DNA of 44,388 nt from a phage, in the sequence record PX136376.1. One strand, written 5' to 3'. A program made the position numbers and the translations under genes. The notes under the pieces are model-generated. The model did not search any database, had not been told where the DNA came from, and saw only the letters and a list, made by a program, of their open reading frames with translations. Shown piece after piece: positions 3,945-39,254 of the stretch (positions are counted from its first letter, which is position 1; each line of letters begins with the position of its first letter).

Positions 3945-4988
3945 ATGAGCTTACTTACATCCCTAATCAGCCACCAGATATGGCTACAACGCGCCGCATC
4001 CGGTGAAGTGAAAGACCTCACACCGTTCATTCAGGAAATGCGGGACGAAATCAAACGACAGGTGCTGTTATTCGGCGACGATGGGCGAAGCACTGCGCGA
4101 CTGAATAAACTGTTACGCGACCTCGAAGAGGCACTAACCGGGCTTACCGATGACTGGCAGACAAAGCTGACAGAAGACCTTAAGGAGCTGGCGGCGTATG
4201 AGGCTGAGTGGAACGTAAAGACGCTGACGGCTAACGTTAACGCGGAATTTGTTACACCTACCGCAGAACAGGTGTTGGCCGCTGCCGAGTTTCAGCCTCT
4301 GTCACTAAGGGACAAGCCGGTTGATTTCACTAAGCTGGTGGATGGCTGGGGTGAAACGGAGGTCGCGCGCCTGGTAACCGGCGTTAAGATGGGTTTTGTG
4401 CAAGGCCAGACAACACGGCAGATTATTAAGAATGTTGTTGGTGCCGGTGGGCTGGCGGACATCTCTGAGCGTAACGCAGCTACCGTAATCCGCACTGCGC
4501 TGTCCCACGTATCCAACGAAGCACGTAACGAGACGTATCGCCAGAACGACGACATTATCGAGAAGTACGAGTGGGTGTCAACGCTGGACAGCCGCACCAG
4601 TACGATTTGCAGGGCCAGAGACGGAATGACGTGGGAAATCGGTAAGGGCCCGATGCCGCCAGCGCATCCAAATTGTCGAAGTACCACAGCCCCGGTGATA
4701 AGTTCCGAGTTCGACTTCCTGGACGTAGGAGCTAAACGCGCGGCTAAAGGCGCAGACGGCGGTACCCAGGTAAGCGCGGACACCACCTATTACGAGTTCC
4801 TGAAACAACAACCAGCGTGGTTTCAGGATGAAGCGCTCGGCCCGGTGCGGGGTAAGATTTTCCGTAACAGTGGTATAACGCCGGAAGAGTTTCGCGTAAT
4901 ATCTGTAGATGGTTTCGGGAACCCGCTCACGCTTAAGCAGATGGCGGAACTCGATAAACGTGTTGCTGATTATCTGAAAGGGGAATAA
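3945..4988 (+). CDS. head morphogenesis protein (Mu F / SPP1 gp7-like minor head protein)
   Basis: C-terminal region contains HPNCRS motif typical of the Mu-F family; RBS acaggaggg before ATG at 3945 (ORF track frame opens at 3888); follows portal. Confidence 0.7.
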   Translation: MSLLTSLISHQIWLQRAASGEVKDLTPFIQEMRDEIKRQVLLFGDDGRSTARLNKLLRDLEEALTGLTDDWQTKLTEDLKELAAYEAEWNVKTLTANVNAEFVTPTAEQVLAAAEFQPLSLRDKPVDFTKLVDGWGETEVARLVTGVKMGFVQGQTTRQIIKNVVGAGGLADISERNAATVIRTALSHVSNEARNETYRQNDDIIEKYEWVSTLDSRTSTICRARDGMTWEIGKGPMPPAHPNCRSTTAPVISSEFDFLDVGAKRAAKGADGGTQVSADTTYYEFLKQQPAWFQDEALGPVRGKIFRNSGITPEEFRVISVDGFGNPLTLKQMAELDKRVADYLKGE

Positions 4989-5449
4989 TGATGGGCTTTT
5001 TCAAAGTAACTGATGTACCGTCGCGTCGCGTAGTCCAGTACGCCCGTGTGTCTGGCTCTGGCGAGAACGTGGTATTTATTGAAAATGAAAGTGTACTCGG
5101 TACACCAGTAGACGATATGCCGTTTGCTGATAAAACCGGTATTGCACTACCGGCGGCGGGTATGCTTTATGAAATTCCGTATCTGGCTGATGCTGGTGAT
5201 GTGTATTTCTCGGTGCAACCGAAAGACACGGAACTGGCAGACGGCAGCGCAACTATCACTGTCGAAGTTAAGGCGGGTAAAGCGCCGTATGCGCTGACCT
5301 GGTACAAAGACGGCAAGGAAGTGGTCAACGCCCCTGAAGAAGCTTTGTCTCTGACGGTTAACGCGGTGGGTGAATACTTCGTTAAAGTCACCGATGCCGA
5401 TGGGGTAGAGGCCGTCAGTAAAGCTGCGAAGGTTACTAAGCCGGAATGA
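4988..5449 (+). CDS. Ig-like domain protein (possible capsid accessory/decoration protein)
   Basis: 153 aa; beta-rich segment ...ALTWYKDGKEV...EYFVKVTDADG resembling an Ig-like fold; start overlaps preceding stop. Confidence 0.5.
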   Translation: MMGFFKVTDVPSRRVVQYARVSGSGENVVFIENESVLGTPVDDMPFADKTGIALPAAGMLYEIPYLADAGDVYFSVQPKDTELADGSATITVEVKAGKAPYALTWYKDGKEVVNAPEEALSLTVNAVGEYFVKVTDADGVEAVSKAAKVTKPE

Positions 5450-5519
5450 TAAAAAGCCGGAATGATAAAAAGCCGGAATGATAAAAAGCCGGAATGATAA
5501 AAAGCCGGAATGATAAAAA
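5440..5519. repeat. perfect tandem repeat, 5 copies of 16-bp unit GCCGGAATGATAAAAA
   Basis: read directly; first unit contains the stop codon of the 4988..5449 CDS; array abuts a terminator hairpin. Confidence 0.95.
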
Positions 5520-5545
5520 GCCCCGCTATGGGGCTTTATTTTTAT
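5515..5545 (+). terminator. rho-independent terminator
   Basis: stem AAAGCCCC/GGGGCTTT with loop GCTAT followed by TTTATTTTT. Confidence 0.65.
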
Positions 5546-5609
5546 ATGAACATCGCGGTGATAGCCGCAGCCGATACCCACAAAACAAAATAAAACATCA
5601 CACTATTTG

Positions 5610-5954
5610 TCATTTGCATTTCTCGTCGTATGTTTGTTGTAACTGCGACAGACGATTACCGGCTGTCATCTCGTCCATAGAAGGCCCGGCGCCCGTGTCC
5701 ATAAAGAACAGCGGAACAATCAGGAATGCGCCTGTAACACCGAGTACAACGTTAGTACCTATTTGCTTATTAACACGGTGCGTAGCGTTGGCTTGAGCTT
5801 GTTTTGTCGTGGCGATTCTCGATAGTAACTGATTACATGTTGCCGTTGTATCCCCTGCCTGATAAACCTGTAAAGCCGGGTCTGGCAACGACCTTACGCA
5901 ACCACTCAAACAAACGGCTACAACACCTGCTACTGCTAATTTAATATATTTCAT
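5610..5954 (-). CDS. lipoprotein (candidate superinfection-exclusion or envelope-modifying protein)
   Basis: 114 aa; signal peptide with lipobox LSGC (MKYIKLAVAGVVAVCLSGC); later hydrophobic stretch VVLGVTGAFLIVPLFF; antisense to structural operon. Confidence 0.65.
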   Translation of the reverse strand: MKYIKLAVAGVVAVCLSGCVRSLPDPALQVYQAGDTTATCNQLLSRIATTKQAQANATHRVNKQIGTNVVLGVTGAFLIVPLFFMDTGAGPSMDEMTAGNRLSQLQQTYDEKCK

Positions 5955-6052
5955 AGTTCACCATTACCCGTGTCAATGTCACCAATACCGCTACAAGCCC
6001 AAAGAAACATCACCGCATCAACTGCAATTACTACTGAAATAACGACTAACAT
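5951..6052 (-). CDS. small hydrophobic membrane peptide (33 aa)
   Basis: MLVVISVVIAVDAVMFLWACSGIGDIDTGNGEL; GGAGG RBS 5 nt upstream; stop overlaps lipoprotein start (ATGA); below ORF-track size cutoff. Confidence 0.45.
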   Translation of the reverse strand: MLVVISVVIAVDAVMFLWACSGIGDIDTGNGEL

Positions 6053-6077
6053 GACGGCCTCCCCGGTTCGATAGAAT

Positions 6078-6108
6078 GAATAGTACCCTATTATATTGGG
6101 GTGTGCAA
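6078..6108 (-). promoter_or_regulatory. conserved promoter/operator element, class 1 copy 2
   Basis: GAATAGTACCCTATTATATTGGGGTGTGCAA, identical to copy at 14882-14912; minus-strand TTGCAC-N17-TACTAT upstream of peptide-lipoprotein pair. Confidence 0.5.
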
Positions 6109-6174
6109 ACTATTTATTTACCTATTCCAGTTATTCCTCTCAATTGTAAATGTTGGAATAAACTATTCGAATAG

Positions 6175-6203
6175 TTGACTTTTCACTAAAAATGTGCTAA
6201 GCT
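6175..6203 (+). promoter_or_regulatory. putative sigma70-like promoter
   Basis: TTGACT-N17-TAAGCT; downstream ~200 nt have no convincing ORF and end in a GC hairpin at 6384-6403. Confidence 0.3.
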
Positions 6204-6427
6204 CCACCTGAGCTTGTGAAGTATGAACAAGCGACCGCGGCGCGGGCAGGTAACGGAGCGGGACGTAAGTCCTGAGTGTAGTTACGCTGACGCGTTCGGA
6301 AGGGCCATACTCTATTGCTTGTGTAAAAAGTAACTGGTTTACTGAGATTACGCCGTTTCTATGTTTAAATGATAAGGACTAGCGCCCCGCTTTATGGCGG
6401 GGCTTTACTTATCGAGAAAGGGGAAAC

Positions 6428-6814
6428 ATGAATCTTAAAGCAACTGTCGTAGCAGGAGCATGTTTCATCATCCTGGTTTACGCACACGGCATCTACCAGT
6501 ATCGCAGCGGATGGAACGAAGGCCGGGCTAATCTCGTTTCGCAGCAACAGCAGAAAGCACAGGCTGAGTTAGCGAAGAAAACACAACGGCAGCAGCAGGA
6601 TGAATCGAAGGCCGCCGCCGCTGACAACGAAGGCAAGACGAAATCAGAGGTGATTACCCGTGAAGTCGTTAAGTACATTAAAACGCCTGGTCGCAGCGTG
6701 TGCACTTTTGACCCTGAGCGCGTGCAGCTCAAGTCCCGCGCCGTCGCCAACGCCAATTCCATCCCCGGATACGACGATGATGCAGCCGCCGTGCAAACTG
6801 GCGCAGCCAAGTAG
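6428..6814 (+). CDS. i-spanin (Rz-like)
   Basis: 128 aa; N-terminal TM helix (TVVAGACFIILVYAHGIY) then charged Q/A/E/K-rich periplasmic region; contains embedded +1-frame lipoprotein gene. Confidence 0.7.
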   Translation: MNLKATVVAGACFIILVYAHGIYQYRSGWNEGRANLVSQQQQKAQAELAKKTQRQQQDESKAAAADNEGKTKSEVITREVVKYIKTPGRSVCTFDPERVQLKSRAVANANSIPGYDDDAAAVQTGAAK

Positions 6815-9198: not shown

Positions 9199-9378
9199 AT
9201 GGCTGATAATTATGTAATCCGCGAAAAGTACACCCACGTTGACGTTGTTGACGGTCAGGTGATGCCTGTTCGCGGTGTTGTAGAGGCGGATGAACTGGTC
9301 GCAACCCAACCGGACAACAAAGAAGCGCACAACAACGGCGGTGGTGCCAAGCGTCGTCGCCGTAAGTCAGAGGAATAA
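9199..9378 (+). CDS. small hypothetical protein (59 aa, basic C-terminus)
   Basis: RBS aaggaaagg before ATG; ends KRRRRKSEE; below ORF-track cutoff. Confidence 0.4.
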   Translation: MADNYVIREKYTHVDVVDGQVMPVRGVVEADELVATQPDNKEAHNNGGGAKRRRRKSEE

Positions 9379-38901: not shown

Positions 38902-39096
38902 ATGAGTCCGTATAACCGGTTTCGTCTGGAGCGTCTACGTCACGGATTAAGTAACGCTAAATTAGCTCTCGATATATGGGAAAGTACGCCGTATTTTTCC
39001 TCGAAGGCATGGTTTGTCGCTCGCGCTACAGCGTCCGTTCAGTACCGGGAATACAAGTTAAACAGTTTCCTTAAACACCATGGGGCTAAGTTATGA
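38902..39096 (+). CDS. hypothetical protein (64 aa)
   Basis: ATG at 38902 within ORF opening at 38890. Confidence 0.4.
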   Translation: MSPYNRFRLERLRHGLSNAKLALDIWESTPYFSSKAWFVARATASVQYREYKLNSFLKHHGAKL

Positions 39097-39254
39097 GAGA
39101 AGCATTCGAACGGTGGGCCGTCGTCGATGGTCTGCCGGTTAATAAGGGTTCGAAGAAAGAGTACCTGAACGTTAAGACGCGTCTTGCGTGGCGGGCGTGG
39201 AAAGCTGGTGCGCAATATCGGGCCGGTGTAACAGGCGGTGTAACAGGTCAATAG
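39093..39254 (+). CDS. hypothetical protein (53 aa)
   Basis: ATGA overlap with upstream gene; below ORF-track cutoff. Confidence 0.35.
   Translation: MREAFERWAVVDGLPVNKGSKKEYLNVKTRLAWRAWKAGAQYRAGVTGGVTGQ

Follow-up and report, generated by a model that had tools for sequence, protein, structure and literature searches.

The five-copy tandem array at the end of a Hoc-like gene in a Kagunavirus genome very likely arose through a microhomology-mediated tandem duplication (MTD) followed by slippage, which would make it a near-neutral VNTR. The sequence studied here, called the window, is the whole 44,388-nucleotide stretch of record PX136376.1. It comes from an E. coli siphophage of the genus Kagunavirus (Guernseyvirinae) whose closest records are the BASEL phages Bas70-76. 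Bas73 is 96% identical to the window over 95% of the first 25 kb, and Bas74, a different genome from the window, has one copy of the repeat unit. Our reading relies on comparing the same site in related phages and on the short direct repeats that bracket the unit in the window's own sub-lineage. The features discussed below are collected in Table 1.

Table 1. Positions in the window of the array, its microhomology arms and the neighbouring features.
Feature	Position	Strand	Basis
Hoc-like head-decoration gene, 153 aa, C-terminal Ig-like domain	4988..5449	+	ORF list; phrog_3945
Tandem array, 5 x 16 bp + 5-bp partial copy	5438..5522	.	TRF; lag-16 run
Left microhomology arm AAGCC (Lys codon and first two Pro-codon bases)	5438..5442	+	sequence
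In-frame tandem stops TGA TAA of the Hoc-like gene	5447..5452	+	sequence; ORF end 5449
Predicted bidirectional intrinsic-terminator hairpin, AAAGCCCC-GCTAT-GGGGCTTT	5517..5537	.	pattern scan, both strands; folds; relatives
Right microhomology arm AAGCC (outer part of the terminator-stem 5' arm)	5518..5522	+	sequence, stem alignment
Convergent 114-aa gene, lipoprotein-like, N-terminus MKYIKLAVAGVVAVCLSGC	5610..5954	-	ORF list; phrog_13472 1.2e-44

The array and the gene end that it repeats

The array fills 5438-5522, 85 bp made up of five 16-bp units and a 5-bp partial copy, AAGCC. Tandem Repeats Finder (TRF) describes it with a period of 16, 5.3 copies, 100% matches, 0 indels and a score of 170 at 5438..5522, and reports it as the single array of the 44-kb window and by far the strongest repeat there. 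The unit is AAGCCGGAATGATAAA in the phase used by TRF and GCCGGAATGATAAAAA in the phase of the original prediction, where the five identical units stand at 5440-5519; the range given there, 5440-5545, is the array together with the terminator. Every unit contains a CCGG palindrome and an A5 tract. Read along the plus strand, the locus runs ...GTT ACT AAG CCG GAA TGA TAA AAA, continues with four more identical 16-bp units and then passes into GCCCCGCTATGGGGCTTTATTTTTAT. The original claim of five mismatch-free units is thus borne out by direct reading as well as by TRF, and so is the claim that the array runs straight into a terminator, as the 5' arm of the hairpin, AAAGCCCC, overlaps the last 5 bp of the repeat. 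The longest perfect self-match is 69 bases (4x16 + 5), at a lag of 16. No other run in the window exceeds 13 bases, the maxima over 30 shuffles were 9-14, and on this comparison a chance product is excluded. One other perfect small tandem duplication was seen in the window, CGGTGTAACAGG x 2 at 39224-39247 (12 bp, in frame), at the 3' end of a 53-aa plus-strand ORF (39093-39254); no obvious flanking microhomology was seen around it.

The gene in front of the array had been described as Ig-like, and this description holds. The 153-aa protein matches phrog_3945, 'Hoc-like head decoration', at 5.7e-86, and its C-terminal half matches titin Ig domains with an E-value of 1.6e-10 as well as phage decoration proteins, while its matches to Pfam Ig_3 and BiPBP_C stay below the cut-offs. 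The records of relatives also annotate the upstream gene as 'Hoc-like head decoration'; an exact-protein look-up of the window's own version returned no record. As had also been proposed, the first unit supplies the stop codon: it carries the last codons of the gene, AAG CCG GAA TGA, with the TGA at 5447-5449 and an in-frame TAA directly after it at 5450-5452, both of them within unit 1. Because both stops lie in unit 1, the Hoc-like protein is identical whatever the copy number.

The locus therefore differs from a phase-variable contingency locus, in that a change in copy number neither shifts the frame of the gene nor alters its protein. A pattern scan for promoter-like sites found none overlapping the array. 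Programmed frameshifting on the A-run was also considered and rejected, since the run lies 3' of two in-frame stops. A slippery heptamer has the form X-XXY-YYZ, which T-AAA-AAG does not have, and this counts against frameshifting too.

Copy number in relatives and the origin of the array

The site was compared in 57 related loci, namely 8 phage records, 1 metagenome contig, 38 IMG/VR genomes and 10 contigs from ENA, Logan or NCBI, the contigs having been chosen by their identical 114-aa protein. A single copy is present in 55 of the 57, two copies are found in phiEc4 and K-02, and none of the loci has more than two. Against the one-copy phiSD1 the window shows an insertion of 64 bp, and against the two-copy phiEc4 one of 48 bp; fBC-Eco01 is also one-copy in the alignment with its relatives. 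In the phage database, among the matches listed, the alignments to the 3' end of the gene lack a second unit except in phiEc4 and K-02. The locus had been proposed to be possibly copy-number-variable, with a comparison across related genomes as the way to check it, and close relatives do carry alleles of 1, 2 and 5 copies (55 loci with one, two with two, the window with five).

Genus-wide, the single copy is AAG CCR GAA TGA, then TAAAA or TAAAAA, and then a GC-rich hairpin. Since the copy in the relatives is the gene end with its A-tract, the 'unit' is not an element in its own right; judged by this comparison it is the last three codons, the stops and the A-tract in front of the terminator. 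A repeat element derived from the host was rejected as an explanation, since the array and terminator have no match in E. coli genomes. The exact pattern of the unit plus one arm, AAGCCRGAATGATAAAAAGCC, gave 0 matches in IMG/VR and 0 in GTDB genomes. It gave three in JGI metagenomes, one of which is a real one-copy relative and two of which are chance matches. The chance matches are the 21-mer AAGCCGGAATGATAAAAAGCC at 8557-8577 of L006 and on the minus strand of L007 (3013 on the reverse complement, reported as 9328-9348); both sit inside related metagenomic genes, response-regulator receiver-domain-like, and are unrelated to the phage locus.

The expansion in the window must be young. Apart from the 64-bp insertion, the only difference between the window and phiSD1 over 5346-6103 is a substitution at 5425, and the two are identical across the 480 bp downstream of the hairpin. 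Such near-identity to a one-copy phage makes the five-copy expansion very recent, as the original prediction had suggested from the lack of mismatches; here it is the flanks on both sides, almost identical to those of phiSD1, that argue for it. phiEc4 and K-02, in contrast to this, show 9 differences from the window in the 480 bp downstream and 47-50 in the 450 bp upstream. Because the two-copy phiEc4 differs at many sites, the five-copy expansion would be independent of the two-copy allele, and most parsimoniously the two are separate events.

The two-copy allele has a history of its own. It is common to phiEc4 and K-02, which differ from each other at 24 of 450 upstream sites, and since two otherwise different phages share it, it appears to have persisted and not to be transient. 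Its two units differ by one A/G change (CCA vs CCG), synonymous in unit 1. This mismatch shortens the perfect repeat and, we infer, should slow further slippage. The comparison with phiSD1 also gave an observation on the wider region. At 4988-5345 substitutions are dense, with about 36 in the opening 360 bp of the Hoc-like gene; the next ~690 aligned bp hold a single one, and from 6104 scattered differences return. Such a pattern points to recombination breakpoints within the Hoc-like gene and close to 6104.

The likely cause of the duplication becomes apparent when the start of the terminator stem is compared across the genus. In most of the genus the region reads AAG CCR GAA TGA TAAAAGGCCCC-loop-GGGGCCTT and has a single AAGCC. 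The sub-lineage of the window has a stem that begins with AAAGCCCC and ends with GGGGCTTT, which gives AAGCC-N11-AAGCC: a second AAGCC, in the stem start AAGCCCC, stands exactly 16 bp 3' of the first, which falls in the Lys-Pro codons AAG CCG. The outermost stem pair of this sub-lineage has gone from G-C through G-U to A-U (AAGGCCCC to AAAGCCCC), with A at 5519 as the derived allele of this compensatory stem change. As read from the aligned stems, then, the second arm is the end product of the compensatory change from G-C through G-U to A-U.

The arms and the expanded alleles go together. AAGCC-N11-AAGCC is present in 19 of 58 loci (window included), and all three expanded alleles are among these, as compared to 0 among the 39 loci that lack the arms. 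The hypergeometric chance of finding all three expansions in arm-bearing loci is 969/30856 = 0.03, a value to be taken as indicative because the loci are not phylogenetically independent. The other 16 arm-bearing loci, five K1G-type loci with a different stop codon among them, are still single copy, so the first duplication must be rare, and by the same count the arms alone are not sufficient for expansion. One-copy loci with arms that read AAGCCGGAATGATAAAAAGCCCC are those of phiSD1, BUCT823, HSE2, SZH-1 and L008 and of six ENA, Logan or NCBI contigs.

We propose that, with synthesis paused at the hairpin base, a new strand that ends in the second AAGCC would re-anneal on the first AAGCC and recopy 16 bp, taking the locus from 1 to 2 copies. 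The resulting 21 bp perfect repeat would then slip more readily, up to 5 copies. The hairpin at the 3' arm could act as a polymerase pause site that promotes the misalignment; a link between pausing and slippage goes back to Viguera et al. 2001 as cited in PMC9879509. The length of the array, n x 16 + 5, is the value predicted by duplication between 5-bp arms. Slippage had been among the original suggestions, and it agrees with relatives of 1 or 2 copies and with the near-identical flanks of a one-copy phage.

MTD is a general route from a single copy to a tandem repeat and is described in yeast and reported for bacteria, E. coli among them, and viruses (Dan et al. 2021, PMC8639346; Wei et al. 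2026, bioRxiv 10.64898/2026.02.28.708716). The array shares its main traits: head-to-tail repeats of constant period, a segment with a short direct repeat at either end (5 bp in this case), a structure of n units and one arm, alleles of 1x, 2x and more among close relatives, one-copy relatives that have the arms, and expansion only where the arms are present. It differs from these cases in that its second arm goes back to a compensatory change in a terminator stem, that the arm lies at a hairpin base which may be a pause site, and that the event is read from sequences. The array also resembles the intergenic VNTRs or minisatellites of bacteria that are used in MLVA typing, having short-period, non-coding, perfect units and polymorphic copy number. 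Unlike those, it is carried by a virulent phage, where it lies 3' to a structural gene and shares bases with the gene's stop codon and terminator; the locus has three allele sizes so far, the expanded ones rare.

A further likeness is to the repeats of Borgs, where partial 'seed' repeats stand next to young perfect ones (Schoelmerich et al. 2023, PMC9879509). Those units are likewise perfect, A-rich and recent, the flanking partial repeat is read there as a seed, and the intergenic ones are not multiples of three. Borgs, however, have hundreds of arrays genome-wide against one in this 44-kb phage, a number that agrees with a sporadic event more than with a dedicated mechanism. A literature search for Kagunavirus together with tandem repeats found no papers. 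Taken together, the array is probably an MTD-derived VNTR of a well-known kind, an ordinary and harmless length polymorphism.

The terminator and the region beyond it

The array ends in a hairpin at 5517-5537 that a pattern scan found with its T-tract on both strands and that the MFE fold and the centroid fold retain on either strand. Every one of the 57 related loci has the hairpin. The stem alignment of its 35 distinct sequences (A2) is paired in 98.9% of cells, and columns 10 and 26 form a stem pair that reads GC in 24, GU in 5 and AU in 6 and is never unpaired. None of 500 shuffles and none of the slid controls reached the covariation score, with the support coming mainly from this one pair as 5 of 8 stem pairs are invariant. 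With a GC-rich hairpin and a U-tract for each strand, conserved with covariation, the site is a predicted bidirectional intrinsic terminator. Its plus-strand T-tract lies beyond the hairpin at 5538-5545, and its minus-strand U-tract (TTTTTATCATTCC) comes from the last array unit at any copy number. Both tails adjoin the hairpin, so copy number leaves the terminator itself unchanged.

The end of the convergent 114-aa gene is 72 nt from the hairpin. Its protein occurs in identical form in 199 collection blocks, and the gene is annotated on the minus strand in phiEc4, phiSD1, fBC-Eco01, HSE2 and SZH-1. A 33-aa minus-strand ORF at 5951-6052 has a 4-nt overlap with it. The block 5538-6121 (~580 bp) is missing from K1G-type relatives, in which the terminator joins directly to sequence equivalent to window 6122 onward, while most other relatives (e.g. 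Bas73) have different minus-strand genes beyond the terminator. The block thus looks like a moron or a mosaic hot spot, with the array at its edge. A second terminator-like hairpin, GCCCCGCTTTATGGCGGGGC followed by TTT, is found at 6384-6403, just 5' of an Rz-like spanin gene (6428-6814), and its stem begins with GCCCCGCT, as the terminator does at 5520. With one of these similar hairpins at roughly either end of the variable block, the pair might act as recombination boundaries.

The annotations of this region are not uniform. In K-02 (L002) the segment 1047-1886, which corresponds to about window 5446-6330, is annotated with five small plus-strand 'hypothetical proteins', and the first of these calls starts at an ATG that overlaps the Hoc stop, inside a repeat unit. 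In phiEc4, phiSD1, fBC-Eco01, HSE2 and SZH-1 two minus-strand genes are called in the place of the plus-strand calls of K-02. The PHROG match of the 114-aa protein supports the minus-strand annotation over that of K-02. Further on, a plus-strand promoter-like site was noticed at 6176-6204, made up of TTGACT, a 17-nt spacer and TAAGCT, with a TGC in front of the last that resembles the TGn of an extended -10. Its -10 hexamer matches at 3 of 6 positions only, which is why the consensus scan missed the site; in fBC-Eco01 a 'host promoter' is predicted at the equivalent place.

Is the array tolerated or used?

Given that copy number alters neither the protein nor the terminator, the expansion would be tolerated. 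We infer neutrality and consider it likely that the array is tolerated rather than used. Selection had been offered originally as the alternative to recent expansion, and it finds no backing in the relatives, where 55 of 57 loci have no array and the five-copy allele is unique and very young. RNA and DNA folds of the array itself give z-scores of about -1.4 with only weak 4-bp CCGG-CCGG pairings, and on the same value, as there is no significant structure, we rejected a structured RNA element.

The alternative that deserves most attention is that the array serves as a spacer which tunes termination, the allele having been selected for this effect. A termination-tuning spacer was also among the original proposals, and as a mere by-effect of the expansion it is plausible. 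With 1 copy, a ribosome at the TGA would be 6 nt from the hairpin and would mask it, and late plus-strand transcription would read through. With 5 copies and 70 nt, the hairpin would form freely, termination would be strong and there would be less antisense transcription across the 114-aa gene. In its favour, from stop to stem there are 6 nt with 1 copy, 22 nt with 2 and 70 nt in the window, the array contributes no competing structure, and the stop-to-hairpin distance is ~4-6 nt in nearly all sequences of the 57-locus survey. In E. coli the lambda terminator tR2 is repressed almost fully at short distance and reaches ~0.9 beyond 30 bp, which was ascribed to the ribosome at the stop codon (Li et al. 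2016, PMC4824070), so the series of 6, 22 and 70 nt spans the range from repressed to maximal there, although that result is for lambda tR2 in reporter plasmids. On this analogy, going from 6 to 70 nt may unmask the plus-strand terminator and cut read-through and antisense across the convergent gene. Such a physical effect could exist without being adaptive, however. No sign of selection on the allele is seen among the relatives, and the downstream plus-strand genes have their own promoter-like site and a second terminator (6176-6204 and 6384-6403). We therefore regard a spacer selected for its effect as unlikely, and slightly more doubtful still is the stronger form of the idea, in which copy number would be a heritable, reversible rheostat that takes the plus-strand terminator from ribosome-masked to fully active. 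If this were true, copy number would set late antisense transcription through the lipoprotein-like gene and onward, and a population would hold pre-existing expression variants.

Other uses of the array fare much worse. Five identical, regularly spaced units, each with a CCGG palindrome and an A5 tract, could be iteron-like binding sites for a phage or host DNA- or RNA-binding protein, and a protein-binding array was one of the original proposals. The array does look like iterons or operator arrays in being a set of several identical short direct repeats in a non-coding stretch. Unlike them it is not conserved in relatives that share the locus: phages with near-identical flanks and the same neighbour genes carry a single unit, as do 55 of the 57 loci. 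There is also no origin or promoter nearby, no cognate protein and no structure of its own, a period of 16 bp does not match the helical repeat, so that neighbouring units face different sides of the DNA, TRF finds only this one array in the window, and E. coli genomes hold no match. Binding sites are for these reasons extremely improbable.

We think a coding role just as improbable. The GGAATGA of each unit had been read as a ribosome-binding site with a start codon, and the ATGA in each unit would allow mini-ORFs (MIKSRNDKKPE) chained by ATGA overlaps, or the 100-aa plus-strand ORF 5494..5796 that is in the ORF list and whose counterpart in K-02 is annotated as a hypothetical protein. But GGA abuts the ATG, which leaves no Shine-Dalgarno spacing; the ORFs from units 1-3 have 11 codons, and the one from unit 4 (5494-5796) is antisense to the phrog_13472 gene (1.2e-44), which is on the minus strand in most records. 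Furthermore, 16 is not a multiple of 3, so that the downstream frame shifts with copy number, and the hairpin loops of 4-5 nt in relatives break any common frame. The GGAATGA reading therefore finds no support. The copy number itself could be an artefact of assembly or sequencing, the true phage having one or two units, as short-read assemblers can mis-size perfect short tandem arrays. The array of 85 bp is, however, shorter than usual read lengths, assemblers tend to collapse repeats and not to expand them, and two independently deposited, different phage genomes have a duplication at the exact same site, all of which makes an artefact very improbable.

Duplication between the arms followed by slippage thus stays our preferred account, and it has some practical consequences. 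The array is a ready strain marker for the window's Kagunavirus lineage. It is also a warning for annotation, as ORF callers begin spurious genes at the ATGs of the units. The alleles with 6, 22 and 70 nt form a natural series that can be used to ask whether the proximity of a ribosome masks a terminator during infection. For the biology of the phage itself the array carries little weight and is most likely a neutral by-product of replication. What it does offer is a clean natural example of the birth of a tandem repeat, in which a stem-preserving compensatory substitution would have created a 5-bp microhomology, with duplication and expansion following in that lineage only.
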